Assembly (NCBI GenBank): GCA_965205405.1
Contig: OZ242169.1
Coordinates: forward strand, 136,896-200,895
DNA from: Gammaproteobacteria bacterium
GTDB taxonomy: Bacteria > Pseudomonadota > Gammaproteobacteria > Eutrophobiales > Eutrophobiaceae
Length of the DNA: 64,000 nt
Direction of reading: 5' to 3'
Under the pieces are notes generated by a model. The model was not told the origin of the DNA and ran no database searches. It was given only the letters and a program-made list of their open reading frames with translations. Both the position numbers and the translations under genes were made by a program. Below are positions 23,161 through 50,430 of the stretch, one piece after another; the first letter of the stretch is position 1; every line of letters starts with the position of its first letter.

Positions 23161-23192
23161 GATGATTGTCTCAATCGGGTGTTGATGACATG

Positions 23193-24181: not shown

Positions 24182-24210
24182 CTCAGCGGCTTCTGCTAAT
24201 TTCACCCAGA

Positions 24211-24306: not shown

Positions 24307-24331
24307 GGTTAGCGGGAACTGCTGAAGATGA

Positions 24332-24721: not shown

Positions 24722-24763
24722 AGTTTTTCCCCGGTAGTAAATTTGAAAGACTGTTTATTTATA

Positions 24764-25483: not shown

Positions 25484-25504
25484 AGGTTAGTCATCTCATT
25501 TGAA

Positions 25505-26056
25505 CTAAGAGTAATAGTCATCAACCTTTTCCATCAGCCATTGCCAGGCTGTCCGTTCTTTTTCACCGGCGGTCTTTTTGATGGCGATGCCCAGGTATTT
25601 CAGTTCCGAACGTATTTTTTCTTCCGGTAACATGTGCAACCGGCTTACCAGGATAGCCGCTTCGACCACCGCGGCCTGGGCGCGGTTGAAACCATTATAG
25701 GGCCTATGGTCGGCGGCATACACAGGCCGGCAGGTAAAAACCGGGCGCAACTCATCGTCTTCCCGACCCTCTACCCTGACTTCAACGTGGGAAAGAGCGG
25801 CAGCGAGTCGTTTACAAGCAATCCGTGATGCATCCACCACCGGCCATTCATGCCGGCCGGTTAAACACCCGGCAAAGATCATGACATCGGTAGTTGCGTT
25901 AATCACTGCCACACCGGAGTCTACCAGGTTATCCAGGGTCCTTGACGGCTTGAACGGTGCGATAAGGAATTTGTCATTTTCATGACGGATACCCATGGGC
26001 GCGATGTGGGCAGTCCCGTCCGGGTTCATTGTGGTTATGACCGTTTCGTAAATCAT
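25505..26056 (-). CDS. DUF447 family protein (Orf19-like, methanopterin C1 cluster)
   Basis: MIYETVITT…HIAPMG…PFKPSRTLDNL, FNRAQAAVVEAAILVSRL and IAIKKTAG motifs. Confidence 0.85.
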   Translation of the reverse strand: MIYETVITTMNPDGTAHIAPMGIRHENDKFLIAPFKPSRTLDNLVDSGVAVINATTDVMIFAGCLTGRHEWPVVDASRIACKRLAAALSHVEVRVEGREDDELRPVFTCRPVYAADHRPYNGFNRAQAAVVEAAILVSRLHMLPEEKIRSELKYLGIAIKKTAGEKERTAWQWLMEKVDDYYS

Positions 26057-27504: not shown

Positions 27505-27518
27505 GTATTATGTGATTT

Positions 27519-27818
27519 ATCCGCAGATTACGCAGATTAACATCAATTCAGGACACCCATCAATTCAGGATATCAATTCAGGACATCCATTAATTCAACA
27601 AAGCCAGGGGATATGCAATTTATGGGTGTCCCAAATTATGCCTTAATTCAGGACACCCATTAATTCAGGACACCCATTAATTCAACAAAGCCAGGGGATA
27701 TGCAATTTATGGGTGTCCCAAATTATGTTCCGTGCAATTTATGGGTGTCCCAAATTATGCTTCCCAAATTATGTTCCGTCAATTCCGGCGATTATGTTCC
27801 CCCTGTGGCCTCTGTGGC
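27519..27818. repeat. Stuttered array of AATTCAGGACACCCAT / ATGGGTGTCCCAAATT arms with two duplicated 50-bp units
   Basis: TAATTCAACAAAGCCAGGGGATATGCAATTTATGGGTGTCCCAAATTATG at 27591-27640 and 27678-27727, plus multiple partial arms. Confidence 0.85.
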
Positions 27819-28023
27819 AGAACAAAATATCGGCAGTTGGTTTATATGAACCAGTATGGCTGTCAGATTGCGTGACAAGTACTGTGATTTACTTGGGATT
27901 AATATCCTATAAACCAGATAACTTATTGTTTTATAACGTTCAGATTTATTTATCTCAGATAATTGTCAGGTCTGGCATAATTATCGCTCTATTATTTCAG
28001 AGATGATAAAAAACGAGACATAA

Positions 28024-28761
28024 ATGGGTATTGCAGAACCGTGGAGCAGGCAAGAGTTTGAACAACATTTGCGTGACAAGGAGAAATATTATCATATTCA
28101 TCATCCGTTCCATGTGTTGATGAATTCCGGAAAACTGGAAAAGCCTGCCATAAAGGGTTGGGTGGCCAACCGGTTTTACTACCAGACCAGCATCCCCGTG
28201 AAGGACGCCGCTATCATGGCCAACTGCCGCGATCGCGACGTAAGACGCCAATGGGTACAACGCATTATCGATCATGACGGTCAGCAAGGCGAAGACGGAG
28301 GCATAGAAGCCTGGCTGCAACTGGGTGAGGCCGTGGGTCTGAGCAGGGCTGACCTGCTGTCGGAACAGCACGTACTGCCCGGGGTACGTTTCGCCATAGA
28401 CGCCTATTACAACTTTGCCCGCACGGCCACCTGGCAGGAAGCGGCCTGCTCATCCCTCACTGAATTGTTTGCGCCCAAAATTCACCAGAAGAGATTGGAC
28501 AACTGGCCGCAGCATTACACCTGGATAGACGCCAAAGGCTATAACTATTTCCGCAAAAGACTGAGCGAGGCAAGACGGGACGTTCAACATGGCCTGGACG
28601 TTACACTGGATTATTTCAAGACCCGGGCAGAGCAGGAGCGGGCCTTGAATATACTGCAACTGAAACTGGATATACTCTGGACCATGCTGGACGCCATGTG
28701 GATGGCCTATATCGAAAACAAGCCGCCTTATCACTGTGTTGAGGGATATTTGGGGTCATGA
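28024..28761 (+). CDS. pqqC: Pyrroloquinoline-quinone synthase PqqC
   Basis: [41 protein letters not shown] and SSLTELFAP motifs. Confidence 0.97.
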
Positions 28762-28882
28762 GGGATATTTGGGGTCAGAGTAAGATATTTGGGGTCAGAG
28801 TAAAAATACTCAACAAGAAACAAGCGCCACCTGATAACCTGACTGTATTTTTACTCTGACCCCAAATATCCAACCCCAAATA
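28746..28882. repeat. Family I element with stuttered partial arms on both sides
   Basis: Arms at 28785-28809 and 28845-28869 (35-bp core); partial arms at 28746, 28765 and after 28870. Confidence 0.9.
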
Positions 28883-28892
28883 TCCAAATATA

Positions 28893-29159
28893 ATGAACCA
28901 TATACCTGAAATTGCCCCGACCTTCCGGTTTCAGTGGGAGGAAGTTCAGGATTGCTATGTTATCCTGTACCCGGAAGGCATGGTGAAACTCAGTGGCAGC
29001 GCCGGCGAGATCATGAAACGCTGTGACGGTGAAAAAAATATTGATGACATCATCGCCGAACTCAAAACCGCATTCCCCGGTGTTGAACTGGAGGATGACG
29101 TTCATAACTTTATAGAAAATGCGAGGAATAATGGCTGGATCAGATTCAAATCAAAGTAA
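28893..29159 (+). CDS. pqqD: PqqA-binding chaperone PqqD
   Basis: [36 protein letters not shown] motif; 88 aa between pqqC and pqqE. Confidence 0.95.
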
Positions 29160-30279
29160 GCCTCTGTGGATGCTGGCCGAGCTGACTTATCGGTGCCCGT
29201 TGCAGTGTCCTTACTGTTCCAACCCCGTGGAAATTGCCAGGTATAAGAATGAGCTTGCCACTGAAGACTGGATCAGGGTCATGCAACAGGCGCGTAAAAT
29301 GGGAGCGACCCAGTTGGGCTTCTCCGGCGGCGAACCCCTGGTGCGCAAAGACCTGGAAGAGTTGATCAGTGAGGCCCGGGGACTTGGTTATTACACCAAC
29401 CTGATCACGTCCGGGGTGGGCATGGACGAGGCCCGGGTAAAAGCTTTCAAGGAGGCAGGCCTGGACCATATCCAGATCAGCTTCCAGGCCAGTAATGAAG
29501 AATTGAACAATTATCTCGGCGGCACTAAAAGTTTCAAGCACAAACAGGAGATGGCCAGGGTGGTGAAGGCGTTTGAATACCCCATGGTGCTGAATATCGT
29601 GCTGCATCGGAAGAACGTCGACCAGATACGGGATATTCTGGATATGACCGTGGAGTTGAACGCCGATTATGTGGAACTGGCCAGCACTCAGTACTACGGC
29701 TGGTCCCGGGTCAATATTGATCAGTTATTGCCGACCAGGGAGCAACTCGCCAGGGCGGAAATCGTAGCAAAGGAATACCAGGAAAAGATGAAGGGCAAGA
29801 TGAAAATCATCTATGTCATCCCGGATTACTTCGAGAACCGGCCCAAAGCCTGTATGAACGGCTGGGGCTCGATCTTCCTGACTATTGCTCCTGACGGCAG
29901 CGCCCTTCCCTGCCACGCCGCCGCCCAGTTGCCCGGACTGGAATTTCCCAATGTGAGAGATCACAGTATTGAACATATCTGGAATGACTCCGATGCCTTT
30001 AATAAATTCCGCGGGTTCGACTGGATGCAGGAGCCCTGCAGAAGCTGCCCGGAAAAGGAAAAAGACTTCGGCGGCTGCCGCTGCCAGGCTTATATGCTGA
30101 CCGGGGACGCTACCAATGCCGATCCGGTCTGTGATAAATCCACCCACCATGGGCAATTACACGCCGACGTGGAACGCATAGGCCGGCTATCCGGCACGAA
30201 AGAATTCGAAAGCAAACCCCTGATATTCCGTAACATGAAAAACTCCAAGGAGATCCTGAGAGGCGGCGTTACGGCCTGA
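29131..30279 (+). CDS. pqqE: PqqA peptide cyclase PqqE (radical SAM/SPASM)
   Basis: [37 protein letters not shown] and DFGGCRCQA motifs; start set at the ATG at 29131 (GAGGA RBS). Confidence 0.97.
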
Positions 30280-32329: not shown

Positions 32330-33285
32330 TTAGATTTCACCCAGGAGCTGTTCTCTCTTCTGTTCATATTCCTCGGCGCTGATCAGTTCCTTATCACGCA
32401 GTTCCTGCAAGGTCAACAGTCTCTGCTCAATTGTCTGGGTTGAATTCCCTTCGGTTGAGGATTTCATCTCCTTGCGCATCTTAGCCAGTTCCAGACGCAT
32501 CTCCCGTCTATCCCGCGCCATCTTAGCCGCCTCGGCCTGCATTGCCGCACTGGTCACGGGTTCCTGCGGCGCCTGTTCCGCCTTTTCAGCAAGGTACACC
32601 GATGCCGCCTGTTCCAGGTCTATTTCTAATCCAGTCGCGGCGTGATTTTTTGCCATCAACGTGAGGCTCAACGCCGGCCCTGGCAACTACGGAACCCTTA
32701 AAACCGACGGATTTGGACCGGCGGCCATGTCTGAAGTACTGCTTTGTATCCGTTACGCCATGGCTCCTTTCAACTGTTTCCTTGAACCTGTCGCCTTCAT
32801 GATCATAATCTCCGATGATGACATGCAGCTTGCCATCCAGGTAGAAAACACGCCCTCCCGTATAACCCCTGTTCTGAATGACCAGATATTTCTTTTCCGA
32901 ACGGGCCAGCACAAAGACGATGTCCTGGTCCGTCCTTGCCGTGGATAAGCCTGTGGCGATAAATTGCCCAAGCAGGCGGGCCTGTTGCAGGGAAAACAAA
33001 TTCTTGAGTTGTTTTTTCTTGAAGAACCCCCCGCCGCTCCAGGCTTCGATTCCTTCGAGCGCGCTGGTGACCTGGTTGGACATCCAATCGCACCGGGTGC
33101 TGGTTCGGCGGTGTCACATCCTTTTTGGACTGGTCCTGATCGGTCAGCCGGATATACAGGTTGGAACCGGATTTCCACAGGACTTCATCGTTCGAGCCGA
33201 AGTTGGGCAATAAATCAGCCTGGATAATACCTGCACACAACAGCAGAAGCAGATACAGGATGCCGGTTTTTGTAAATCTTCTCAT
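32330..33285 (-). pseudogene. Secreted SHOCT-domain protein split by two +1 frameshifts (or sequencing errors)
   Basis: Three consecutive ORF pieces (signal peptide; central domain; C-terminal IEQRLLTLQELRDKELISAEEYEQKREQLL SHOCT) join after removing single extra bases near 33080 and 32625. Confidence 0.75.
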
Positions 33286-33413: not shown

Positions 33414-34677
33414 TTACCAGAGCAGGAACCCGCCGATGGAGAAGGTATCGACGTCATCCTGACCGAGCGTGTCGTTACTGTAATTGCCGTATTCAGCAAT
33501 AACCTTCAACCAGGAATTGACGTCATGGTAGACGCCCACGGTCCACAGATCACCTTGCAGTTCAGAAATACCATACGTGGCATCACCATCCTGTTTTGAC
33601 TCACCGTAGCCGCCGCCGATCTTGGTGGTGCCGTTGAAGGTGTAGCTGGCTTGTACGTAGAAGCCGTCGTTATCGGCTTCCTTCGGCACAACCGTTGGCA
33701 TTACATCCGAAACCACCCAGTACACCGGTGTTGAACAGCAGGGTATCCCAGCGCTTCGCCGCTATAGTACTGACCGGTCACACTGAATCCCTGGGCTGAG
33801 ACCTGGGCGCCGACATTCCAGCCTACGGACTCAACATCACCTCCGGCCATACCCGCACTTGGTGGCATGCCTTCAAACACCTGCAGGGTTGTCGGGTCAT
33901 CATCTACACCAAGAGACGCTGCAACAGGCAAAATCTCCTGCTCCTGCCAGAGGAAACCGGCCCAGCCACTGAAGCTGCCGCCCTCGAAAGCGGAGTTGAA
34001 AGTGGCTTCGGCCTGGAACTGTGGGGTATCAGTTTCGGAAGCCATGGCAGGCGCCGCCACCCGGTTCCTGCGGGTCAAAGATACCTACGGACAACTGGAA
34101 ACCGTTCATGTCCGGAGTCTGGTAGACAAAGCGGGTACGGAAATCGGGATAGACGTAGCCATAGCCGATACGACCCAGAGCCTGGTGCCGCCGCCATCGG
34201 GACCACCATAACCCATACCGAAACAAGGTGAGGTCTTTCAAAATGGCCTGACGCCCGAACAGTGCCAGGGTGCGGCCTACGCTGATGGTGCCGAAATCAC
34301 CGGACACGTTGAAGAACACTTCACGCATATCGATATTCGAAGTCGTTCCAAACAGACCCGATTTATTCAAGCGGCTGCCCTTCTCAGCTGGAACTGTCCA
34401 CCGCAAATGTGATCTGGCCGGTACCGGTCAGGCCGTTGACCTCAGGGGTCTTGACCACCATGGTATGGAAGGAAGGCAACAGGCCCTCGTTCAGGTGGGC
34501 ACTGTCTTCAGTACCGAAATCACTCTGTGTGTAGAACAGGTTGATAAAGCCGCCGTAGCTGACTTCCCAACCGTCCGCACCGCCCAGGACTACTGCCGCA
34601 TTGGTCGGCATGCTGAAAGCAGCTACCAGCACCAGAGTACTCAGTGTAGCCGCGAGCTTGGTTGTATATGTTTTCAT
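33414..34677 (-). pseudogene. Outer-membrane porin, fragmented by about 6 indels (or sequencing errors)
   Basis: Signal peptide, GLLP, MREVFFNVSGDFGTISVGR…RQAILKDLTL, GRIGYGYVYPDF and aromatic C-terminus (GGFLLW) are spread over four reading-frame pieces. Confidence 0.8.
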
Positions 34678-35002
34678 TATTCTCCTCCTCAGGAAAGGTA
34701 ATAAGCTAAAAGATACTTCGATTTCAATTATTAAAAATTCTTTGTCCTGGTTCCTAAGATCAACCTATTGGTACAAGGATATTGCATGATTGAAGAAATT
34801 GCAACATATTAAAGGCAATAATACAACACTTTTTTACAATTTTTTCTATTATTTATCATAAAGTTGTTTCTTTTATGCAACATTATTCCCGTCAAGACAA
34901 TACTTATAATAAAAATAGCGATTAATTCCTTGTTAAAACCACATTCAGGCTCATTCATCTACAGGTGGGACTTCGGTTAGTCTATGAGTTGCCATCCTTG
35001 GC

Positions 35003-35257
35003 TCACCCACCCGCTACCGGCGGCCATATTGCCAGGGTGTCTCCATCATTGAATACGGATTTGTTGCGGTCCTCAGGTTTTATATATACACCGTTCAACA
35101 GCACCAGGTGAGCCATTTCCCTCGGCACCTTGTACCTGTCGATGACTTCATAAGCGGTATTGTGTTCGGCTATTTCTATGATGAGTTTATTATCCTTGGT
35201 ATCAGGGGGAAGATAATCGGTTAAACCGGCGTAGAGCTTGAGTGTCAGCTTAAACAT
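35003..35257 (-). CDS. AOR-associated MoaD/ThiS-family sulfur carrier
   Basis: 84 aa, KLYAGLTDYLP…LVLLNG…GDTLAIWPPVAGG; last gene of the AOR operon. Confidence 0.9.
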   Translation of the reverse strand: MFKLTLKLYAGLTDYLPPDTKDNKLIIEIAEHNTAYEVIDRYKVPREMAHLVLLNGVYIKPEDRNKSVFNDGDTLAIWPPVAGG

Positions 35258-35340
35258 GCGTCAGAATGGCGACGTGGGGGCATGCGCCAGCGTGACGGCG
35301 TAGCCATGCGCGGTTGAGACGGTACAGCCGGTTAAACTAC

Positions 35341-36606
35341 TCAAAGCAGTGCGGCGTTGTGGCCGATTGACTGGGTTGCGCCGAGGTACGCTTCCATAAT
35401 CCTGGTCGGGTCGCTCAGCAGGTGTTCCTTCCATTTGCCCAGGTGCAACTTTGTCTGTATCAGGCCGCGCAAAACGCCGACGTGATTAGTCAGTCCCAAC
35501 GCCTGGGCGCCCACCAGCACGTCTTCCTGGAACTGCAGGCTGATATAGCGGTATCTTTCCGCATCCACCAGTTCAACGGACTCGCCGCCGTCGACACCCA
35601 TCCATAGACCATAAGAGGTGGAGACCAGTCCCATGGTATCCAGCACGTTCATATTGACACTGCCCTGGTGGCGGATATCCCGGCCGGACATGTTCATTGC
35701 CGCTATCCTGCCGTGGTCCGCGGCGGTAGGCTGGATGGCCTGTACGCTGTACTCGGCGGTGGAAAAATCCTTGCCCTGGCACACGTCACCGGCGGCGTAC
35801 ACGTCCGGGTGGCTGCTTTGCAGGCGGTCATTCACCAGCACGCCGAAGCCTGTCTCAATCCCGCTGCCTTCCAGAAACTGGATATTGGCACGCACACCGG
35901 TGGCGGAAATCACCACGTCGGCGCCCAAACGGTCGCCGTTGTCCAGTTGTACCGACAGTCTTGCGGCGCCATCCTGCTCAATTGCCTCAACCCGGGTAGA
36001 GGTCAGTACGTTGACGCCCTTGTCCAGGCACCACTGTTTGATCATATTCCCGGCAGTCTGGTCCATCATGCGCGGGACCATGCGGTCTTCCATTTCGATC
36101 ACCGTCAGGTTTACTCCGCGCGAAGCCAGCGACTCCAGGATGATGCAACCGATGAAACCCGCTCCCATCAGGATAACGTCGGATCCTTCAACGGCATTCT
36201 GCGCGATATTCCTGCCGTCCTCCAGGGTCCAGCAGGAATGTACGGCGGGCGAGTCCAGGCCCGGAATGGGGGGGCGGATAGGATGAGAACCTGTGGCAAT
36301 CAATAACTTATCGAAGTTGACCGTGGCGCCGTTTGCCAGCGCCAGGGTGTGGGCGTCGGGGTCCACCGACTCCACCCGGCCATGGATCACCTCAATGTTA
36401 TTGTCCGCATAATGCGTTGCGGACTTACGCAGGTAGGTGCCGACCTCATCAATATTATTAATGAGGTAGTACGGCAATGCCATGCGGGAATACGGCGGTT
36501 CTGTTTCGTCGCCTATGAGTTTTATCGAACAGGAGGCATCGTTTTTTCTGAGTGTCTCCGCTGCGATGACGCCGGCAGGCCCGGCCCCGATAATAACGTG
36601 TTGCAT
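35341..36606 (-). CDS. FAD/NAD(P)-dependent oxidoreductase (AorC-like subunit)
   Basis: IIGAGPAG, PYSR, LLIATGS, GAGFIG and VYAAGD motifs; directly follows the AOR catalytic gene. Confidence 0.88.
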   Translation of the reverse strand: MQHVIIGAGPAGVIAAETLRKNDASCSIKLIGDETEPPYSRMALPYYLINNIDEVGTYLRKSATHYADNNIEVIHGRVESVDPDAHTLALANGATVNFDKLLIATGSHPIRPPIPGLDSPAVHSCWTLEDGRNIAQNAVEGSDVILMGAGFIGCIILESLASRGVNLTVIEMEDRMVPRMMDQTAGNMIKQWCLDKGVNVLTSTRVEAIEQDGAARLSVQLDNGDRLGADVVISATGVRANIQFLEGSGIETGFGVLVNDRLQSSHPDVYAAGDVCQGKDFSTAEYSVQAIQPTAADHGRIAAMNMSGRDIRHQGSVNMNVLDTMGLVSTSYGLWMGVDGGESVELVDAERYRYISLQFQEDVLVGAQALGLTNHVGVLRGLIQTKLHLGKWKEHLLSDPTRIMEAYLGATQSIGHNAALL

Positions 36607-36632
36607 TGTTCAGTCTCTTTTTATGCTTGCTT

Positions 36633-36656
36633 GGGGACGGACTTAAGTCCGTCCCC
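36633..36656. repeat. Family II palindrome GGGGACGGACTTAAGTCCGTCCCC
   Basis: Perfect 24-bp palindrome between the aorB-like and aorC-like genes. Confidence 0.85.
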
Positions 36657-36675
36657 GGTGTCCCCGGACAAACTG

Positions 36676-38535
36676 TCAGCCCAGGCTCAGGCGCTGTCTG
36701 GTATCGTCAGTCGGTACCCCCTGCTTATCCCAGCCGCGCACCTCGTAGTATTTCGGCAGCATCTCGTGCAGGTTGTTGACCATGCCCTTGGCCGGTCCGG
36801 TCTTGGCCGGCTCCGTCAACATGCGTTTCGGCAACGTGTCGTCTGCCGCAGTCAGCCCTGCCGCGAGGTTGAATTCACGTTCCATGTTCCAGATACGCTC
36901 ACCCGCTTCCAGCATGGTCTCCGCGGTCCAGTCACCCTCACAAGCCGCAGCCACCTGGGGAGCAATATCTTCCAGGGTCCAGGCAAATGTGGTGAAGACG
37001 CACAAGCCGGACGAATCCACAATGGCGGTGGCGTCCTGGAAGGCCTTGACCAGTTCCGGCTTGCCCTCCGTCGACAACGGGTCGGTCTTTACCGGCAAGC
37101 CCATCACCTCGGATGATACGGTGTAACTGCGCAAATGACAGGCGCCGCGGTTGGACGTGGCGTAGGTCAGCCCCATCCCCTGGATGCCGCGGGGGTCGTA
37201 GGCCGGGAATTCCTGGCCTTTCACCGTCATCGACAGATCAGGATGACCGTATTTTTCACACAGGCGCTTGGAACCCATGCCCAGTTCCCGACCGAAACCT
37301 TCTCCCTTGCAGGTAACTTCGGTTGCCCAGGATAGCGCTTGCGCCGAACCGAACTTCAGTTCGACACCGCCTGTGTGCTCTTTGGTTATCACCCCCATCT
37401 CATACATTTCCATGGCGGCGGCAAGGGTGGAACCAAAGGAGATCGGATCAATCCCGTCCTCGTTACAGAGGAAATTCGCATAGGTCAGGGCATCTATGTC
37501 GTCAATGCCGGTATCCGAGCCCAGCGCCCAGGCTGCCTCGTATTCCAACCCGCCTGATGAACCCCAGTATTGCGGTTTGTTTTCAACAGTGAAGTGGCCT
37601 TGATCGATGGTGGATATGCGTCCGCAGGCGATAGTACAGCCCTGGCACGCGGCGTTGGTGACCAGGTTGGGTTTACCGTCACTTTCCCGCGGCTCGTGCA
37701 TGGCCTCGCCGGAAATCTTGCTGGAACCATCGAACTGGACGTCACGCATATTACGGGTCGGCATGGCGCCGACTTCGTTGATGACGTTCATCAATACGTT
37801 GGTGCCGTAGGTCGGCAGGCCCTGTCCGGTTACCGCGCTATCGGCCAGGACTTTCTTGCCGGCATTCACCGCCTGCATGAATGCGGCCGGGTCCTTGATG
37901 TTGCCTACGCCCTTGGTGCCCCTGACCGCGACTGCCTTGATGTTCTTGGACGCCATAACCGTACCGACGCCGGAACGGCCGGCAGCGCGATGCAGATCGT
38001 TCACGATCGCCGAGTACAGGCAGCCATTCTCGGCGCTGCGGCCGACGGCGGCAATACGTAACAACGGATCCTGGTATTTTTTGTGCAGCCACTCATCCGC
38101 CGCCCACACCGACTTGCCCCAGATCTCCTCCGCGGAGACTATATCAACCTTTTCATTTTCGATATAAATGTAAACGGGTTGCGGCGCTTTGCCTTCATAA
38201 ATAACCATATCGTAGCCGGCGGATTTCAACTCCGAACCGATGAAACCGCCGGAATTTGAACAGGCCACCGCGCCGGTCAGCGGGCTCTTGGTGACCACGG
38301 AATAGCGGCCGGCGGTGGATGCCATGGTGCCGGTCAGGGGACCCGTCGTCATAATCAGCTTGTTTTCGGGCGACAGGGCATCGCACATGGGGTCGATCTC
38401 TTCTGCCAGGTACTTGGTGGCAAGTCCGCGCTGGCCCAGGTAGAGCCGGGCCCATTCCATATTTAACGGTTCATTGCTGACGGAACCATCGGTCAGATTT
38501 ATTCGTAATACATTATTAGTCCAAGCCATTTTCAA
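36676..38535 (-). CDS. aorB: Tungsten-containing aldehyde oxidoreductase catalytic subunit (AOR/WOR family, AorB-like)
   Basis: KSPLTG…SNSGG, AAGRSGVGTVMASKNIKAV, CQGCTIAC, EYEAAW, DPISFG, AYDPRG, NRGACHL and YYEVRGWD motifs; 619 aa. Confidence 0.93.
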   Translation of the reverse strand: MKMAWTNNVLRINLTDGSVSNEPLNMEWARLYLGQRGLATKYLAEEIDPMCDALSPENKLIMTTGPLTGTMASTAGRYSVVTKSPLTGAVACSNSGGFIGSELKSAGYDMVIYEGKAPQPVYIYIENEKVDIVSAEEIWGKSVWAADEWLHKKYQDPLLRIAAVGRSAENGCLYSAIVNDLHRAAGRSGVGTVMASKNIKAVAVRGTKGVGNIKDPAAFMQAVNAGKKVLADSAVTGQGLPTYGTNVLMNVINEVGAMPTRNMRDVQFDGSSKISGEAMHEPRESDGKPNLVTNAACQGCTIACGRISTIDQGHFTVENKPQYWGSSGGLEYEAAWALGSDTGIDDIDALTYANFLCNEDGIDPISFGSTLAAAMEMYEMGVITKEHTGGVELKFGSAQALSWATEVTCKGEGFGRELGMGSKRLCEKYGHPDLSMTVKGQEFPAYDPRGIQGMGLTYATSNRGACHLRSYTVSSEVMGLPVKTDPLSTEGKPELVKAFQDATAIVDSSGLCVFTTFAWTLEDIAPQVAAACEGDWTAETMLEAGERIWNMEREFNLAAGLTAADDTLPKRMLTEPAKTGPAKGMVNNLHEMLPKYYEVRGWDKQGVPTDDTRQRLSLG

Positions 38536-38547
38536 CTTCCTCCCGTA

Positions 38548-39018
38548 TCAGTTGGCGCCGGCGCTCGCCGCAGCGTGGGCGCGCATCCGGTCAAGCCCGG
38601 TATGATCGGCATCGACGTAAGTAATGGCGGCCGTCGGGCAGGCTTTTGCACATTCGGGGTCGCCGCCGCACAAATCACATTTATACACAACCCTGGTGTC
38701 CTGGTTGTAGTTGACCGTCCCGAACGGACAGGCAATGGTGCACACCTTGCAACCGACGCAGACGTCAGCCAGCACGTCCTTGGAGCCGGTTTCCTCGTTC
38801 AGCACAATGGCTTCGACGGGACAGGCGTGCATGCACCAGGCCTCGCTGCACTGGGTGCAGGTATAGGGGACAAACCGGCCTTCCTCGTGGAAGGTAAACA
38901 CCTTGATGCGGGATTTGGAGGGATTGAATACCCCTTCCGCTTGATAAGAACAGGCCAGCTCACATTGCAGGCAACCGGTACACTTTTCCGGTTCAATCTG
39001 GAGTGATCTCAGCATCAC
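38548..39018 (-). CDS. aorA: Polyferredoxin 4Fe-4S subunit (AorA-like)
   Basis: Four Cys clusters (CTGCLQCELAC, CTQC…CMHACP, CVGCKVCTIACP, KCDLC…CAKACP). Confidence 0.92.
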   Translation of the reverse strand: MMLRSLQIEPEKCTGCLQCELACSYQAEGVFNPSKSRIKVFTFHEEGRFVPYTCTQCSEAWCMHACPVEAIVLNEETGSKDVLADVCVGCKVCTIACPFGTVNYNQDTRVVYKCDLCGGDPECAKACPTAAITYVDADHTGLDRMRAHAAASAGAN

Positions 39019-39342
39019 ATCCTCCTTTAGTTAAATAGTAGGAATAGCAATAAAAAATATAATACCAGCATTTCTGTAATAAGAAAGACTGGAAAATTCT
39101 TATACAAAATCGGGAAAGTGTCCCGAACTCACCACAACCGATTTTTCTTATAATAGGTTTATCCGGCTTCACCCTTAGTGGTATAGTCCATTAGCCACTT
39201 GTATAAACCACTCGCTAGAGGATACAGGAACAGATTGATGATGACAATATCCTGTAGCGGGAAATCTGCAACCGCGCATGCGCCGGAAACAGAACTATTT
39301 TATTCTTTGTAAGTCCAATTTCCAATGACAGGAAAATTATTT

Positions 39343-40134
39343 ATGAAAAGTATTGTTTTTATCATTCTCTGTCTTGCCTGGAGCGGTGCGGGAGCAACAG
39401 AAATCAGGATTGCGTTCATAGGTCCTGACAACAACAGCGCGTACAAAGGCGTTGAACAGGGTATCCACGAGGCGAACCTGCAAGGCCGGTTCCTGAGCCA
39501 GAGCTATTCCCTGCATAGGTTCAGCGGCGCGGATATGGACGCAATCGACCCGGCCGGGTTTATCGCCATTATCGTCTCCACGAATGCAGACGACCTGCAA
39601 CAGGCCGCGCGGCGCTTCACGGATCACGCAATCCTGAACGTGGCCGTACACGACGACGGGCTAAGGGAAGAATGCAGTGCAAATCTTCTTCACGTTATAC
39701 CCAGCAGGAAAATGCTGGCGGACGCCAAAGCCCAATGGTTGCAAAAATCGCCGGGCGACGAGATAAACGTTTCCGGCTGGCACCCTGATTTTGTGAAATT
39801 CGCCGCACGGGACCTGAATAAACGCTACAAGAAAAAGTTTTCCGAAGCCATGGACCAGTATGCCTGGGCCGGTTGGGCCGCGATCAAGATGGCCTCGGAT
39901 TCGGTGGCAAGGAAAGATTTAACCGACCCCGTCGCGCTGTTGAACCATCTTAAGACCGGATTGTCGTTTGACGGCCAGAAAGGCCTTGACATGGATTTCC
40001 GCGACACCGGGCAGTTGCGCCAGCTACTGCTTATTGCCGATACTGCCGGAGAACTGCTGGGCGAAGCGCCGGTCAGAGGCGTCGTCGCGCCTGACGACGT
40101 GGATAGCCTGGGTCTGGCTTCCTGTTATAATTGA
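39343..40134 (+). CDS. Periplasmic substrate-binding protein of the PQQ alcohol-dehydrogenase-associated type (short form)
   Basis: Signal peptide, GIHEANLQGRFL, GWHPDFVKFAARDLNKR and FDGQKG…FRDTGQLRQ motifs; directly upstream of the beta-propeller gene. An alternative start at 39325 is possible. Confidence 0.7.
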   Translation: MKSIVFIILCLAWSGAGATEIRIAFIGPDNNSAYKGVEQGIHEANLQGRFLSQSYSLHRFSGADMDAIDPAGFIAIIVSTNADDLQQAARRFTDHAILNVAVHDDGLREECSANLLHVIPSRKMLADAKAQWLQKSPGDEINVSGWHPDFVKFAARDLNKRYKKKFSEAMDQYAWAGWAAIKMASDSVARKDLTDPVALLNHLKTGLSFDGQKGLDMDFRDTGQLRQLLLIADTAGELLGEAPVRGVVAPDDVDSLGLASCYN

Positions 40135-40213
40135 GCCACAGAGGACACAGAGATCACAGAGAAAAGTCAGAAACAGCGGAGCTTTGCCCAGCAAGCTCTG
40201 TGCACTCTGTGGC
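40135..40213. repeat. Family III CACAGAG element
   Basis: GCCACAGAGGACACAGAGATCACAGAG starts right after the SBP stop; partial inverse CTCTGTGCACTCTGTGGC at 40196-40213. Confidence 0.8.
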
Positions 40214-40242
40214 TAAATTCATATTTAATTTAGGAGTAACCG

Positions 40243-41193
40243 ATGAAACATCTCATTACTGTCAGCGTAATCTTTCTGGCCGGCATTCAGCTTGCCTATG
40301 CTGCCAGCGGCCGTATCTTTGTCACCAATGAGCGGAGTAACAATATCTCCGTCATAGACGGCGCCTCGCTGGAAATCGAAAAAACCATTGAAGTCGGCGA
40401 CCGCCCCAGAGGGATCGGCATCTCACCCGATGGCACTGAGTTATATGTCGCGGTCAGTGAAGAAAGCGTCATCGCGGTTATCGACTTGAAGACACTGGAA
40501 CTACTGCGGAAATTCAAGGCCGGGTCCGACCCGGAAACCTTCGCGGTGCACCCGAATGGAAATATCTATATCTCCAACGAGGATGATGCAAAGGCAACTG
40601 TCTTTAATCCTGTCACGGGTGAACAGATAGCGGAGATCCAGGTGGGCCTGGAGCCGGAGGGCGTAGCTATTTCCCCCGATGGCAAGTACGTGATAGTCAC
40701 CAGTGAGTCGACCAACATGCTGCACGTCATACAGGTGCCCGAGCACACCATTGTCGCCAACATCCTGGTCGGCGCCAGGCCGCGCGCTGCCGTATTCACT
40801 AATGACGGCAGCCTGGCATTCGCCACTTCCGAGATTAGTGGCGAGGTCAAAAAGATCGACATGGTGAGCCACGAAATTATTGCGGTGAAGAAAATTGCGG
40901 ACGAAAAGGCCAAGCCCAAGGACGTGATCCTGAATAAGGATGAAACCAAGCTTTACGTAGCAGGCGGCCGGGCCAACCAGGTAATCGTCCTGAACGCTGA
41001 TACGATGGAATTCATCAAGGGGATTCCGGTAGGAAAACGAGTCTGGGGACTGGCAATCTCAAAGGACGGCAGCCGGGTGTTCAGCACCAATGGCGTCAGC
41101 GGCACCGTTTCCGTTATCGACACCGGGAAGGACGAGGTCATCAAGACTATTGAGGTCGGCAAGTTCCCCTGGGGTGTGGTGATTGACGACTAG
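40243..41193 (+). CDS. PQQ-dependent catabolism-associated YVTN beta-propeller protein
   Basis: Signal peptide and repeated VTNE…ISVID / G.RPRG / G.EPEGV / VG.RVWG blades ending GKFPWGVVI. Confidence 0.85.
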   Translation: MKHLITVSVIFLAGIQLAYAASGRIFVTNERSNNISVIDGASLEIEKTIEVGDRPRGIGISPDGTELYVAVSEESVIAVIDLKTLELLRKFKAGSDPETFAVHPNGNIYISNEDDAKATVFNPVTGEQIAEIQVGLEPEGVAISPDGKYVIVTSESTNMLHVIQVPEHTIVANILVGARPRAAVFTNDGSLAFATSEISGEVKKIDMVSHEIIAVKKIADEKAKPKDVILNKDETKLYVAGGRANQVIVLNADTMEFIKGIPVGKRVWGLAISKDGSRVFSTNGVSGTVSVIDTGKDEVIKTIEVGKFPWGVVIDD

Positions 41194-41319: not shown

Positions 41320-42141
41320 TTATTCAGGTTTTGTAAACTTCATTGTCATCCTGTCGCTCTCTCCGATAGACGCATACTTTTCACGATCCTGATCCTTCAT
41401 CCTGTAGGTGGGCGGTAAAGTCCAGACGCCTTTTTCATAGTCCTTGGTATCCCTGGGATTCGCATTGATCTCCGCCTTATCGACAAACTCAAGCCCGGCC
41501 TGTTGCGCCAGGCGGATGACTTCGGCCTCGGGCACATAACCCTGTTTTGACCATTGCTTGCCGACCATGTGTTCCTCGCCCCTGTGGGTTACCAGACCCA
41601 GTATGCCTCCCGGTTTGAGTACTTTGTATATCGCAGCAAAAACCTGGTCCGCCGTATCGTTATTCAGCCAGTTATGGACATTGCGAAAGGTCAAAACCAT
41701 GTCCGCCTGGCCTTCCGGTTGTAGTACCGGTTTGTTCGGAGGCGCAAATTCAAACATATTGACTTTGCCGTATATCTCCGGATCAGACGCCAACTTGTCC
41801 GCATATTTTTTGTAGCTACGGCGGTAGTATTCAATCTCGGATTCACTGTCGTAGCTTCCCACGTAGAATTTCCCGTTATCTCTTAAGTAAGGCGCCAGTA
41901 TTTCGGAATACCAGCCGCCTGAGCCCGGGGATATTTCGACCACCGTCAGGTCATTGCGGATACCAAACCAGTCAAGAGTCTTTGCCGGGTTGCGGTACTG
42001 GTTGCGCGACTTATAGGCATCTGAACGGTGGTCGCCGTTGGCGAGCGCCATAAGTTGGTCAACATTGTCAGCGGTAACCACCTGGCTCGCAGGCAGGCCC
42101 AGGACCGCAATTAATATGAACAGATATTGGTTCAGCTTCAT
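41320..42141 (-). CDS. Periplasmic class I SAM-dependent methyltransferase-like protein (COG4798 type)
   Basis: Signal peptide, RNQYRNPAKTL…VVEISPGSGGWYSEILAP, DMVLTFRNVHNW and IGESDRMTMKF motifs. Confidence 0.85.
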   Translation of the reverse strand: MKLNQYLFILIAVLGLPASQVVTADNVDQLMALANGDHRSDAYKSRNQYRNPAKTLDWFGIRNDLTVVEISPGSGGWYSEILAPYLRDNGKFYVGSYDSESEIEYYRRSYKKYADKLASDPEIYGKVNMFEFAPPNKPVLQPEGQADMVLTFRNVHNWLNNDTADQVFAAIYKVLKPGGILGLVTHRGEEHMVGKQWSKQGYVPEAEVIRLAQQAGLEFVDKAEINANPRDTKDYEKGVWTLPPTYRMKDQDREKYASIGESDRMTMKFTKPE

Positions 42142-44065: not shown

Positions 44066-44091
44066 AGGGTAGCTTCCCGCAACAACATAAT

Positions 44092-44164
44092 GCCGGATTA
44101 GCTCAGTTGGTAGAGCGCCCGCCTTGTAAGCGGATGGTCGGCGGTTCGAATCCGTCATCCGGCA
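44092..44164 (+). tRNA. tRNA-Thr (anticodon TGT), CCA not encoded
   Basis: Cloverleaf: acceptor GCCGGAT/ATCCGGC, D-arm GCTC/GAGC, anticodon loop CT-TGT-AA, T-loop TTCGAAT; followed by A-TCA. Confidence 0.9.
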
Positions 44165-44238
44165 TCACTTATTAGTTTTATATATTCTCTTTACTTCCTT
44201 TATAGTACATATAACCATTTGTATATAATGGTTTTTTA

Positions 44239-44754
44239 GGTACTGACAACTTAACTCTTTTGGCCCAGTAGAAATTCATTGTTCGGAATCAAGCGACTGC
44301 TTTTGTCCATTGTCCAAAGGCATCTATCCTGAGTTTTTTGTAATGCTCAGCACGTACAAGATGTCGTCCAAGGTTGAAAAGATTGTAGACCGCTGCGTGG
44401 ACATTCAGAAATCGCTGAGCCTGCGCAGTTGACTTGAAGCGCCTCATCCCGCGTTCTCTGACTCTGGTCGGCTGATGAGATAATTCCTTTGCTGCCGCTC
44501 CATCACGGCGCGATTGTAGAAATACATCAATCACTTCACCCTCCTGGCAACCTGTTATTGGCATATGTGCTGTGTTATGGATAGTGTTCGGGATCAGCTC
44601 ACGCTGTGCCAGCAGGTCTTCAATATCCCGGTGGCTAAGATTGAATCGAAAGTAAAGCCAGACTGCATAACTAATGATATCGGGGGGAAACCGATGACGT
44701 TTATATGTATTCATTCCCGCATTATCCATTTTCGGGAGTTAATTTGTCAGTACC
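44239..44754 (-). mobile_element. IS6-family element, internally deleted and scrambled (516 bp)
   Basis: TIRs GGTACTGACAA(C/A)TTAACTC at both ends; transposase fragments HRFPPDIISYAVWLY and RVRERGMRRFKS. Confidence 0.9.
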
Positions 44755-44850
44755 CGCGGCGCATAGACGAATGACGGCAACCGGCGTGCGGGTTTCCAGA
44801 CGGGGAGGTGTGCAGGGTTGGACATGGCCAGTTGAAATCTGAATTTAATA

Positions 44851-44900
44851 GTCTCATAATAAGCTCAACTTTAGCTCATTTTAAGTTCAGCTATGGCTCA
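44851..44900. promoter_or_regulatory. Five NN(C/T)TCA direct repeats at exact 11-bp spacing upstream of the Fic gene
   Basis: GTCTCA 44851, AGCTCA 44862, AGCTCA 44873, AGTTCA 44884, GGCTCA 44895. Confidence 0.5.
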
Positions 44901-44959
44901 GGAGGCAGCTGTGACGGGCACCTCCCATGGACTGTTTCTTGAGCGCCTGGATACCGCAA

Positions 44960-46339
44960 ATGAAAAATATGACAAAAAGTGACGTGTCGAAGATCATCGT
45001 TGAGATAGTCAACGGTGCTGAGGACGGACTCAGCAGCACCGATATCCATCAGGCTTTAAAGCGAAGCCTGCGTGGCAAGGCCCCCAGTTACAGTACACTG
45101 AAAAGAAGACTGACCGAGCTTGTGGATGAGGGGATAATCATACACACTGGGAAGACCTGGACTGCAAAATACCGGCCGCTCGCCGAAACACCCGGGCAGG
45201 ACACCATCATTGGCGCTGCACCGTATATCCCCGTCTCAGACGAGAGCAAGGCGATCCGGGAGTATGTACGGCGCCCCATTCAGGGCCGGGAGCCCGTTGG
45301 TTACCGGCGGGAATTCCTGGAGGACTACATACCCAACCATACCGCCTACCTGCCGGATGACATCAGAGCGCATTTGCACAATATAGGAAAACTCAAAGAA
45401 TTGGGGCAGGCCACTGGCGGGACCTATCCGTCTGACTTGGTAAACAGGTTGCTGATAGACCTGTCCTGGGCGTCCAGCAGGCTGGAAGGCAACACCTATT
45501 CAATCCTGGAAACCCGGAACTTGATTGAAGCCGGTAAGGTCGCCGAAGGAAAAGACCACACCGAAACCACGATGATCCTGAATCACAAACGCGCTATAGA
45601 GATGTTAATCGGTGCCGCACAGGATATCGACTTCAACATGTACACAATTCTGAACCTGCACGGCCTTTTGTCAGATAATCTGCTGGGCGACCCGAACGAC
45701 AGTGGACGCCTGCGAAACAAGATTGTTGAGATAGGCGGCTCCGTTTACTTGCCGCTGGGATTCCCACAGCAGGTGGAGCAGTATTTCAGGATGATTCTGG
45801 ACAAGGTCAAGGATATAAAAGACCCGTTTGAGCAGTCTTTCTTCACTATGATGCATTTCCCGTACCTGCAACCGTTTACTGACGTCAACAAGCGGACCGC
45901 GCGACTGGCCGCCAACATCCCGCTGATCAAAAGCAGGCTGTGTCCGTTATCGTTCATAGATGTCCCAGACCGAGACTATATCGAAGGGATGCTCAGTGTG
46001 TACGAATTAACTCAAACCAGCCTGCTGCAGGATGTGTTCGTCTGGGCGTATGAGCGGTCATGTCGGCGCTACACCAACATCAAAGACCATGCTGCCGCAC
46101 CTGATCCGTTCCGACTGAAATACAGGCAACTGCTCGATTCAGTAGTAGGCCGCATCGTAAAGGATCAAATCACAGCCACTACACAATCCATTGCGAGCCT
46201 TACAGCAGGACGTATCCCTGATAAAGATGCCGACAGGTTCATTACGATGGTTGACGGCGAATTGCAGAATCTCCATGAAGGGAAGCTGGTCCAGTATCAT
46301 ATAAGTCTGCCTGAGTTTGAAGAATGGAAACAACTGTAA
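44960..46339 (+). CDS. Fic-family protein with N-terminal HTH region and non-canonical Fic motif
   Basis: LLIDLSWASSRLEGNTYS, TMILNHKRAIE and YLQPFTDVNKRTAR motifs; the ORF could start at 44927. Confidence 0.9.
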   Translation: MKNMTKSDVSKIIVEIVNGAEDGLSSTDIHQALKRSLRGKAPSYSTLKRRLTELVDEGIIIHTGKTWTAKYRPLAETPGQDTIIGAAPYIPVSDESKAIREYVRRPIQGREPVGYRREFLEDYIPNHTAYLPDDIRAHLHNIGKLKELGQATGGTYPSDLVNRLLIDLSWASSRLEGNTYSILETRNLIEAGKVAEGKDHTETTMILNHKRAIEMLIGAAQDIDFNMYTILNLHGLLSDNLLGDPNDSGRLRNKIVEIGGSVYLPLGFPQQVEQYFRMILDKVKDIKDPFEQSFFTMMHFPYLQPFTDVNKRTARLAANIPLIKSRLCPLSFIDVPDRDYIEGMLSVYELTQTSLLQDVFVWAYERSCRRYTNIKDHAAAPDPFRLKYRQLLDSVVGRIVKDQITATTQSIASLTAGRIPDKDADRFITMVDGELQNLHEGKLVQYHISLPEFEEWKQL

Positions 46340-46395
46340 TCGGCGTATCGACCTGATGGTGACGGCGCGTCATCCATACCATCAGGGCAAATACC

Positions 46396-47169
46396 GGTAC
46401 TGACAAATTAACTCCTGTGGCCCAGTAGAAAGTTGTCGTTCGGAATCAAGCAACAGCTATTGACCATTGTCCAAAGGCATCTGTCCTGAGTTTTCTATAA
46501 TGCTCAGCACATACAAGGTGCCGTCCAAGGTTGAAAAGATTGTACATCGCCGCGTGGATAGTCAGAAATCGCTGTGCCTGTGCTGTTGACTTGAAGCGTC
46601 TCATCCCGCGTTCTCTGACTCTGGTCAGCTGATGAGACAACTCCGCCCTATTGTTGGCATACTGTGTCGTGTTATGGATAGTGTTCGGGATCAACTCACG
46701 CTGTGCGACGCCATAGCTTCGCAATTTATCGGTTACAATTTGCCTGGGCTCTTCACCCTGTCTTCGCAGCAAGCGTATAAAGAATCGTTTAGCTGCTGCC
46801 CCATCACGGCGTGATTGTAGAAATACATCAACCACTTCACCATCCTGATCAACAGCTCGCCATAGATATTGTTGCTTGCCGTTTATCTTAACGAAGACTT
46901 CATCGATGTAGAATGTGTCTCCATAGCTTGTGTGTCGGCGCTTCAACCGCCTGGTATAAATCCGACCAAACTTGATACACCATAACCGGATGGATTCATA
47001 GCTGACGATTATTCCACGTTGTGCCAGCAGATCTTCAATATCCCGGTGGCTGAGATTAAATCGAAAGTAAAGTCAGACAGCGTAGCTGATGATAGCGGGT
47101 GGAAACCGGTGACGCTTGTATGTATTCATACCGGCATTATCCATTTTCGGGAGTTAAGTTGTCAGTACC
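46396..47169 (-). mobile_element. IS6-family element (774 bp); transposase has a nonsense mutation
   Basis: TIRs at 46396-46414 and 47151-47169; DDE-region motifs YIDEVFVKING…WRAVDQDG, IVTDKL and NNRAELSHQ; YAV-TGA where copy 1 has YAVW. Confidence 0.92.
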
Positions 47170-47559
47170 CTCGCGTGTATTGATTTCGACTTTTAGCCGA
47201 AGAGGCAATTGAGGAGAGCCTTCGGACACAAATCGGTAGTTGAAGGTGATGCGGGATTCGGTTTGTTTGTACTTCGGTTCACCCAACCACGGATTCAGAA
47301 CCTCGTTCAGTGCGGCCATGACCGGTCCCGCCGGTTCGGCGTTCACCTGGACAAGATCAATATCTTCAGAATACCTTGCCGGTGGCAAGTGGAGTTTAAA
47401 CAGGGCCGTCCCGCCTCGGAAAGCAAGCGCGCTGTGCAATACCTCATTCGAGAATATCTCTATGAGCGCGCGGCTGATGATGAGATCCTGCTCGACTTGC
47501 GCGTCATCAACCCACGGCGCTCGACCCCGCCACTCTGTGATGTAGTCGTACGGGATCAT
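47170..47559 (-). pseudogene. AbiEii/type IV TA nucleotidyltransferase toxin, 3'-truncated by IS6
   Basis: QVEQDLIISRAL, FRGGTAL and RYSEDIDL motifs; after KVEINTRE the frame runs into the IS TIR (GTDNLTPENG). Confidence 0.88.
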
Positions 47560-48371
47560 ATGTCCGGCTCCAGCTCTGCATTCACGACCAACTTCCAGTT
47601 GGGAGTACGGTGGCTGCCTGCGCCCTCATGCCCCGGCAGCAACATCGTATATGCGCGTGCTTGTTCGTGAACGTAGGCCTGGATATGATCGGCAGCGTCT
47701 GCCTGCTTGACCAATTCCAGGATGTAACCGAGCCGCTGGACCCAGGTGATGGGCGCCGTTATCGCAGCTGTTCTTAATGCTGCCGGGTCGATCTCGCTGG
47801 CGAGTTCAGACAGGATTGTCGCGACCTGGTCCAGCCCGCCGACATGTTCCGGGTAACCGACAAGGTCAAGCGCGGTCGCTTCTGGTGTCGAAACGCGGAG
47901 TTCGCCGCGCTCTGTATTGAACGAACGCACCAGTACTTCGTCAATCTTCTTTCGGGCGACGAATTTGATCCGCACTTTCCCGCAACGAATCGGTCTGCGA
48001 TTTCTTGCCAGGAAGATCTGGAATTCCTGTGGGCGTTGGTGGGCCGCCCCGTAGTATTGCGCGGCGGTCAGCAGGCCTGCGTAATAGTTCAGTCCCTTGT
48101 ACTTGATCAGGTCCGGAATGAACTGATCCGCGGGCAGACAGCCCAAGGACCGGTATTCCGGCGGGATGATGACGTAGAATCCGCGGGCGGGAGACGCAAT
48201 CTGCCCTTGTTTGGCGAGCCGATTCAAGGCCAGCTTGCAGGCGTCCGGTGAGACCTTCAGTGCTGCGCGCGCCTCTTCCGAGGTGAAGCTATAATGCCCC
48301 TTCGATGCCAGTTCCGTGATAAGAGCTTTGGCCGTAATGTGTTCCCTTAAATTGGGAGTTCTCCGGTCCAC
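47556..48371 (-). CDS. AbiEi-family type IV TA antitoxin/transcriptional regulator
   Basis: N-terminal wHTH-like region, RGFYVIIPPEY, YYAGLLTAAQYYGAAHQRPQEFQ, VSTPEATALDLV and QRLGYILE motifs; overlaps the toxin start by 4 nt. Confidence 0.87.
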   Translation of the reverse strand: MDRRTPNLREHITAKALITELASKGHYSFTSEEARAALKVSPDACKLALNRLAKQGQIASPARGFYVIIPPEYRSLGCLPADQFIPDLIKYKGLNYYAGLLTAAQYYGAAHQRPQEFQIFLARNRRPIRCGKVRIKFVARKKIDEVLVRSFNTERGELRVSTPEATALDLVGYPEHVGGLDQVATILSELASEIDPAALRTAAITAPITWVQRLGYILELVKQADAADHIQAYVHEQARAYTMLLPGHEGAGSHRTPNWKLVVNAELEPDI

Positions 48372-50257: not shown

Positions 50258-50430
50258 GTGTGCTTGTTATCCACGCTCTCCGGAATATAGTCGCCACCCC
50301 GGTCACGTGAGAGCATCCGTACCCGACCGGTTTCCGGATGACGGTATAATACGGTCATCAGGGACAGGGTCTGATCGGCAAATGTGGACCTTACGTACAC
50401 CATGAAGTAACGGCTCCTTGTCGTTACGTC
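50254..50430 (-). pseudogene. gspK: 3' remnant of type II secretion protein K
   Basis: TRSRYFMVYVRSTFADQTLSLMTVLYR…VRMLSRDRG resembles the GspK C-terminus; its stop overlaps the gspL ATG. Confidence 0.6.

Follow-up and report, generated by a model that had tools for sequence, protein, structure and literature searches.

Gene organization of the locus

The locus described here lies in a 64-kb stretch of a gammaproteobacterial genome (contig OZ242169.1, assembly GCA_965205405.1), referred to as the window. It is composed of an operon for a tungsten-dependent aldehyde oxidoreductase (AOR), aorA-aorB-aorC-aorD, and two divergently transcribed genes for exported proteins, a binding protein and a YVTN beta-propeller, referred to as the pair. 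Judged from gene order across genomes, the operon and the pair are a module conserved in several gammaproteobacterial lineages. A functional link between them is likely, because the pairing recurs in many Gammaproteobacteria. Six genes had been placed here by a sequence-only reading of the window, and all six are present in the open reading frame (ORF) map and in family scans.

The features of the locus are the following:

35003-35257, minus strand: aorD, MoaD/ThiS-like protein of 84 amino acids (aa), with Pfam ThiS and Ub-Mut7C matches and the C-terminus ...PPVAGG
35341-36606, minus strand: aorC, FAD-containing, NAD-reducing subunit of 421 aa (Pyr_redox_2, E 9e-59)
36676-38529, minus strand: aorB, tungsten-pterin catalytic subunit of 617 aa from its ATG (AFOR_N and AFOR_C)
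38548-39015, minus strand: aorA, polyferredoxin of 155 aa from its ATG (Fer4 families, 16 Cys)
39016-39342, no strand: divergent intergenic region of 327 bp (ORF map and sequence)
39343-40134, plus strand: exported, shortened PedA1/LutA-like binding protein of 263 aa (TIGR03863, below the cut-off)
40243-41193, plus strand: exported YVTN beta-propeller, PedA2-like, of 316 aa (TIGR03866, above the cut-off)

The aorB ORF (36676-38535, minus strand) opens at a TTG at 38535. Its likely start is the ATG at 38529, which gives 617 aa and matches the 616-617 aa of AorB homologues. For the aorA ORF (38548-39018, minus strand), the likely ATG is at 39015, and the gene in a relative is also 155 aa long. 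The binding-protein ORF opens at 39325, and the gene is taken from 39343. Both the binding protein and the propeller have hydrophobic, signal-like N-termini.

The tungsten aldehyde oxidoreductase AorABC

The aor operon is intact and runs from 39015 to 35003 on the minus strand. AorB possesses the Pfam domains AFOR_N (E 1e-75) and AFOR_C (E 3e-143). Its best match in the PDB is chain A of 8C0Z, the AorABC of Aromatoleum aromaticum, with 983 bits and 67.3% identity over 615 residues. A CxxCxxxC [4Fe-4S] motif at residue 297 (CQGCTIAC) and the conserved Glu- or His-bearing active-site motifs GLEYE, GACHLR, and DSSGLC are aligned with 8C0Z. The best PDB matches of AorC and AorA are chains E (464.5 bits) and C (255.4 bits) of the same structure. 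AorC contains two dinucleotide-binding GxGxxG/A motifs, at residues 7 and 148, and the 16 Cys of AorA are enough for four [4Fe-4S] clusters. The likeness to the A. aromaticum enzyme noted in the sequence-only reading is thus borne out by the matches of all three subunits.

AorABC of A. aromaticum is the only characterized Class III tungsten oxidoreductase (WOR); it is NAD+-linked and has a broad aldehyde range (PMC6365974, PMC13328260). The A. aromaticum operon also holds MoaD-like genes, with aorD in the same position (PMC6365974, PMC13328260). The enzyme (AaAOR) turns over formaldehyde at 4.1 U/mg and phenylacetaldehyde at 25 U/mg, a difference of ~6-fold (PMC6365974). The assignment of the window operon as an AorABC-type, NAD-linked tungsten aldehyde oxidoreductase of Class III is secure at the level of sequence. 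AorD, which ends in Gly-Gly, is presumed to be a tungsten-cofactor maturation factor.

Related loci were collected by a genome scan anchored on AorB, which gave 80 loci (L-numbers denote the loci compared, and WIN denotes the window). In 48 of these 80, a gene of ~100 aa without a Pfam or NCBIfam match lies 3' of aorD, e.g., L004:11694-11999. This gene was not found by tblastn in window positions 34678-35002, nor is it present in the nearest relatives L093 and L094. A second small gene comparable to aorE is likewise not seen 3' of aorD in the window. In two marine relatives, aorB is followed by two aorC-like FAD/NAD subunit genes in tandem (L083:2341-5095 and L086:1089-3823).

The binding protein and propeller pair

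The propeller scores 340 bits against TIGR03866 and passes the curated cut-off of 287.3 bits, as expected of the YVTN propeller associated with pyrroloquinoline quinone (PQQ) alcohol dehydrogenases (ADH) that the sequence-only reading had named. The corresponding scores are 320 bits for relatives and 520.6 bits for a canonical control. An exact look-up of the window propeller gave no identical database record. To our knowledge, PedA2/LutB propellers have no known function.

The window propeller is 44-47% identical to propellers of canonical clusters on alphaproteobacterial plasmids. These clusters are composed of a binding protein (376-406 aa), a propeller, a small ORF, an ATP-binding cassette (ABC) ATPase, and an ABC permease, in that order. 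They adjoin a PQQ methanol/ethanol dehydrogenase (xoxF-type), cytochrome c550, and pqq genes. The PedA1A2BC/Lut arrangement has been implicated in lanthanide uptake (PMC6839425, PMC7391723).

TIGR03863 is the sole specific match of the window binding protein (E 6e-34), and its score of 117.6 bits fails the curated cut-off of 413.6 bits. A relative of the protein scores 126.6 bits, and a canonical control scores 491.9 bits. Residues 28-133 and 141-258 align in two blocks to canonical residues 58-173 and 277-396, and ~100 canonical residues (~174-276) are skipped, leaving 263 aa vs. 376-406 aa. Judged from the alignment, the missing residues are most of one lobe of the protein. An AlphaFold (AF2) model built with 32 homologues is confident, with a predicted local distance difference test (pLDDT) value of 91.3. 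The model has the type I (LIVBP-type) periplasmic binding protein fold, with template modeling scores of 0.74 normalized to the query (TMq) and 0.59 normalized to the target (TMt); by TMt, its coverage of full-length structures amounts to no more than about half to 0.59.

Short binding proteins of this kind form a family of 794 database matches, ~263-276 aa long and mostly unnamed. Across members whose identity to the window protein is 47-96%, ~60 columns do not vary, and two of these hold Cys. Based on this strong conservation, the short binding protein is judged to be a functional, remodeled derivative and not a truncated pseudogene or a decaying relic. No ABC ATPase or permease lies beside the pair in the window or in ~40 related loci. 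The pair, having no such transporter attached, has probably ceased to serve an importer.

On these comparisons, the pair descends from the PedA1/LutA binding protein and the PedA2/LutB propeller of ped/lut clusters. The earlier label of a PQQ-ADH-associated binding protein therefore holds for the ancestry from PedA1/LutA but not for the present form, which is truncated, under the TIGR03863 cut-off, and without an ABC transporter. A role of the pair in tungstate uptake was considered and rejected; the fold is LIVBP-type and not of the TupA/ModA type, and no transporter is attached.

Conservation of the aor and pair adjacency

The pair is divergent from aorA in 33 of the 80 AorB-anchored loci. 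Among these, identity to the window proteins falls to ~75% for AorB, 58% for the propeller, and 43% for the binding protein. Sampling was also carried out in reverse, from six propeller homologues (67-71% identity) and three binding-protein homologues (47-55%), and aorA-B-C-D was divergent from the pair in all nine places. The adjacency is therefore not unique to this genome. The outer flanks have at least four arrangements, and the aor/pair core is kept in all of them:

Window's clade: methyltransferase-like gene, SDR and GFO, or an integrase
Marine lineage: TonB-ExbBD system
Groundwater/wastewater lineage: TonB-dependent receptor
Another lineage: Ser/Thr-kinase response regulator

The nearest relatives, with 87-99% AorB identity, are metagenome-assembled genomes of uncultured Gammaproteobacteria. 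Bin names of some relatives suggest sponge metagenomes, and the host is probably sponge-associated. To go by the cluster, oxidation of aldehydes by tungsten enzymes is common among marine and sponge-associated lineages. In a neighbor-joining tree of AorB, pair-bearing loci fall into three groups parted by pair-less groups; AorB is so conserved that the deep nodes of this crude tree, and with them any count of independent gains, are unreliable.

In the window, a 273-aa gene (41320-42141, minus strand) with sub-threshold methyltransferase similarity lies directly 3' of the propeller. It has the same place in L002-L007, L010, L093, and L094 and was not found outside the window's clade.

Regulators and other companions in relatives

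In most lineages, a GerE/LuxR-type response regulator and a HisKA_3 kinase are convergent with the propeller. The kinase carries a periplasmic LapD_MoxY_N domain and is thus of the MoxY/ExaD/PedS2 type. Kinases of this type control quinoprotein alcohol dehydrogenases (PMC12997753). In a large marine lineage, the pair's operon is headed by a regulator of 385 aa that faces aorA directly and combines a MimR_N/DhaR-like sensor region with a Fis-type helix-turn-helix (HTH_8). A regulator of this DhaR/MimR type is often found in relatives beside the kinase and the LuxR-type regulator. In L086, two MimR_N/HTH_8 regulator genes stand in tandem.

In one lineage, a TonB-dependent receptor adjoins the propeller. 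By tblastn, neither the TonB receptor f15 nor the small gene f4 was found in the window. The kinase and the AOR are both present in L014 (Methylohalomonas lacus) and L015, but the pair is not. On the other side of the operon, the order 3' of aorD in most relatives is the ~100-aa gene, a porin, a SHOCT-domain gene, pip, folP, and then pqqE-D-C. The pqqE gene is syntenic with the AOR in L003-L006, L013, L028, L039, L042, and L065.

The intergenic region and the aorA leader

Two elements were recognized in the divergent intergenic region:

39110-39126, minus strand: palindrome/hairpin TCGGGACACTTTCCCGA followed by TTTTG in the aorA leader (terminator-like match)
39148-39155, minus strand: TATTATAA box (TATTATAAT in relatives), -10-like, upstream of the hairpin (conserved alignment block in close relatives)

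The sequence-only reading had proposed a shared divergent promoter. The region itself (327 bp) is shared by both operons, but its conserved elements are located only on the aorA side. The TATTATAA(T) box and the hairpin are restricted to the closest clade, and the hairpin could be an operator or an attenuator-like element. The spacer is 156-502 bp long in relatives and is interrupted in L002, L040, L050, and L052. The palindrome of the hairpin, GGGA-N5-TCCC, is found 69-106 nt upstream of aorA and is conserved in WIN and L001-L011 only. As a general AOR operator it was rejected, since it is confined to the closest clade among all loci searched.

Sigma-70 and terminator scans gave nothing above shuffled expectation. 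Rfam searches of the spacer at permissive E-values returned no family and no riboswitch in the aorA leader. At gathering scores, the only Rfam match in the whole window is a tRNA-Thr.

PQQ and C1 cofactor genes

Window positions 16881-30279 are made up of clustered cofactor genes, of which the last are the PQQ genes 5-9 kb from the aor operon:

28024-30279, plus strand: pqqC-pqqD-pqqE, PQQ biosynthesis (TIGR02111, TIGR02109; pqqD ORF 28893-29159)

The pterin-cofactor genes of this set are moaA, fdhD, mobA, mobB, moeA, moaE, and moaC, and pqqB (21639-22568) lies among them. Genes of the tetrahydromethanopterin (H4MPT)/methanofuran type are also present and encode MfnB-like, DUF447, and DUF6513/dihydropteroate-synthase-like proteins. 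Simple pattern (regex) scans recognized no pqqA. Judged by content, the set is consistent with a PQQ-using organism that is capable of one-carbon (C1) metabolism and needs pterin cofactors. On the Phyllobacterium plasmid NZ_CP017942 (L092), a canonical lutA/lutB-ABC cluster has the same H4MPT-type and pqq gene sets at its flanks.

Repeat arrays surround pqqC. Units of 13-17 nt lie upstream of the gene (27541-27773), and GATATTTGGGGT-type units lie between pqqC and pqqD, direct at 28740-28803 and inverted at 28859-28891. Relative to L093, the window has a 22-bp extra repeat copy near pqqC.

Other features of the window

The genes that follow aorD in the window are interrupted:

33417-34677, minus strand: porin gene 3' of aorD with at least three frameshifts (tblastn pieces in three frames)

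The adjoining SHOCT-domain gene (32333-33285, minus strand) has two frameshifts. Both genes are intact in L093/L094 (porin 403 aa, SHOCT gene 333 aa), where AorB is 99% identical. DNA identity to relatives of the L093/L094 type is 81-90% at the porin and SHOCT genes vs. 95-96% in the aor and pqq genes. The frameshifts suggest real decay, and an assembly error is also possible.

Positions 44091-48371 look like a variable, mobile zone. This zone contains the tRNA-Thr (44091-44166), a Fic-domain protein (44927-46339), an IS240-type DDE transposase fragment (46446-46946), and an AbiEi antitoxin-like gene (47556-48371). L093 and L094 instead have a phage-type integrase 3' of the methyltransferase-like gene. 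Positions 50000-52100 have 65.7% G+C vs. ~52% elsewhere. A 580-aa ORF in this block (50303-52045, minus strand) has no Pfam or NCBIfam match and adjoins GspL/GspM type II secretion genes.

Proposed role of the module

The module is somewhat more probably than otherwise the aldehyde-oxidizing branch of a ped-like alcohol oxidation, with AorABC as the equivalent of PedI/ExaC and the PQQ-ADH encoded elsewhere in the genome. The ped cluster of Pseudomonas putida matches in its kinds of genes (PMC12997753), and the PedI/ExaC role for AorABC is the simplest reading. By homology to the characterized enzyme, AorB would oxidize an aldehyde to the acid in the cytoplasm at a tungsten-bis-pterin site. The [4Fe-4S] chain in AorA would relay the electrons to FAD in AorC, which would reduce NAD+, and AorD would be a MoaD-like cofactor-maturation protein. 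The periplasmic pair would belong to the same regulon, as an accessory or as a component for signal input. Aliphatic or aromatic aldehydes of two or more carbons are the likely substrates. A role specific to formaldehyde is disfavored by the weaker activity of AaAOR on this substrate (PMC6365974).

The sequence-only reading had coupled alcohol, aldehyde, and acid in the same order. The AorABC enzyme, the PQQ-system neighbors, their conserved adjacency, the MoxY/PedS2-type two-component system of relatives, and the nearby pqq genes support this reading in part; taken together, they resemble the Pseudomonas ped cluster with the tungsten enzyme standing in for PedI (PMC12997753). The PQQ alcohol dehydrogenase that the reading calls for was not found in the window or the related loci.

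Several observations weigh against assigning the module to ped-like alcohol oxidation. Neither a PQQ-ADH nor cytochrome c550 is encoded in the 64-kb window, and none lies within 8-10 kb in ~40 related loci. No PQQ-ADH was found among the large unassigned ORFs of pair-bearing loci, which include TonB receptors, a transposase, FtsK, and a hydantoinase. The kinase, the response regulator, and the DhaR/MimR-type regulator were not found in the window by tblastn. No motif common to both sides of the spacer, or conserved beyond the closest clade, was found. Of the 47 AorB loci without the pair, ~11 have upstream sequence too short to judge. The remaining ~36, including Thiodiazotropha, Sedimenticola, Spongiihabitans, and Methylohalomonas, are informative, and they indicate that the AOR does not need the pair. 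Finally, the housekeeping genes pip and folP keep their place beside the AOR over the same distances as the pair, and part of the pattern could therefore be inherited synteny.

The last point leads to a rival account, in which the adjacency is inherited gene order without functional meaning and the AOR sits in a stable block beside a ped/lut relic. In addition to pip and folP, the porin, the SHOCT gene, and pqqE hold their positions beside the AOR across the same loci. The Phyllobacterium plasmid groups H4MPT-type, pqq, and lutA/lutB-like genes with no AOR, and the place of the pair near pqq genes may therefore be ancestral. The many lineages with an AOR and no pair, and the lack of a regulatory motif found on both sides, fit this account as well. 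However, the flanks past the propeller vary by lineage while the contact between the pair and aorA stays, and the close and mid-distance pair homologues that were sampled adjoin an AOR in nine of nine cases. The binding-protein derivative is too well conserved, with its invariant columns, for a relic without function. In one large lineage, regulators are inserted exactly at the junction of the pair and aorA. Inherited order alone is an unlikely explanation.

In a more doubtful alternative, the ABC-free pair has become a periplasmic input dedicated to a MoxY/PedS2-type kinase, and this kinase controls the tungsten enzyme. The pair would act as a co-sensor of alcohol, aldehyde, or lanthanide, and the kinase would signal to its LuxR-type partner to switch on aor. 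Orphan binding proteins that serve as kinase co-sensors are an established pattern, e.g., TorT-TorS and LuxP-LuxQ. The loss of the transporter, the deleted lobe of the binding protein, and the periplasmic LapD_MoxY_N domain of a kinase that is convergent with the propeller in most lineages are all in keeping with such a role. It is made rather improbable by the window and its nearest relatives, where kinase and regulator are not adjacent (they are absent from the 64 kb), and by L014 and L015, which have the kinase and the AOR but not the pair. If true, it would be an undescribed regulatory module, possibly one in which lanthanide availability governs tungsten use.

The version given in the sequence-only reading, an AOR that oxidizes formaldehyde downstream of methanol dehydrogenase and complements the H4MPT route, is very improbable. 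H4MPT/methanofuran-type biosynthesis and pqq genes are indeed present in the window, AaAOR does turn over formaldehyde (PMC6365974), and the same idea has been put forward for Methyloversatilis (PMC5023235). Nothing at this locus points to formaldehyde in particular, however. Methanol dehydrogenase, fae, and fhc genes were not found in the window, the DhaR/MimR/AcoR-like regulator type of relatives goes with C2-C3 carbonyl compounds, and the rates of AaAOR given above favor phenylacetaldehyde (PMC6365974).

The advance is incremental, as the idea of a quinoprotein ADH that feeds a tungsten AOR is already published, and the sequence-only reading's description of an undescribed pathway coupling does not stand beside earlier proposals (PMC5023235, PMC12510462). 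What appears to be undescribed is the conserved clustering of AorABC with ped-type regulators and with PedA1/PedA2 derivatives that have no ABC genes; no literature linking an AOR with lanthanide, ped, or lut accessory genes was found. The cluster is a testable handle on the purpose of the tungsten enzyme in aerobic and marine Gammaproteobacteria, as the physiological partners of the A. aromaticum enzyme are unclear. It is also a handle on what the propeller and binding protein do outside an importer.

Comparison with known systems

The closest characterized system is AorABC of A. aromaticum EbN1 (PDB 8C0Z; Class III WOR, clade 87), which has the same gene order, aorA-B-C-D. Both possess a 16-Cys polyferredoxin, an FAD/NAD subunit, and a MoaD-like gene that ends in GG (PMC6365974, PMC13328260). 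All three window subunits are the best reciprocal-type matches of the A. aromaticum proteins. The window differs in that it has no second small gene after aorD and that its neighbors are ped/lut-like. The hosts also differ, A. aromaticum being a denitrifying betaproteobacterium and the window host a gammaproteobacterium that is probably sponge-associated.

The ped cluster of P. putida KT2440 holds PedA1A2BC, PedS2/PedR2, PedE/PedH, a porin (PP_2662), the NAD-dependent aldehyde dehydrogenase PedI, and pqq genes (PMC12997753, PMC6839425). The window shares with it a binding-protein gene adjoining a YVTN propeller, and a cytoplasmic NAD-linked aldehyde oxidizer, a porin, and pqq genes nearby. In relatives only, a MoxY-type kinase and a LuxR-type regulator also stand beside the pair. 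Unlike the ped cluster, the window has no PQQ-ADH, cytochrome c550, PedB, or PedC. The binding protein is ~100 residues shorter, and a tungsten enzyme takes the part of the aldehyde dehydrogenase.

The lut cluster of Methylorubrum extorquens AM1 likewise has an exported LutA/LutB pair with pqq and H4MPT-type genes near (PMC7391723). A further likeness, seen in one relative lineage of the window, is the TonB-dependent receptor beside the propeller. In contrast to lut and the plasmid relatives, the transporter and the xoxF-type dehydrogenase are absent beside the window pair.

Two pathway proposals are related in function. In Cycloclasticus, an alkane/alcohol pathway from a monooxygenase through a PQQ-ADH to a tungsten AOR has been proposed (PMC12510462). 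Its metabolic logic is that of the reading given here, with a periplasmic quinoprotein ADH ahead of a tungsten AOR in marine Gammaproteobacteria. Unlike the Cycloclasticus pathway, the window has no hydrocarbon monooxygenase. In Methyloversatilis, a tungsten aldehyde dehydrogenase was predicted to act on formaldehyde alongside H4MPT, and the AOR transcript level on methanol exceeded that on methylamine 2.6-fold (PMC5023235). Both proposals rest on pathway reconstruction and expression, whereas the case presented by the window is a physical gene cluster.

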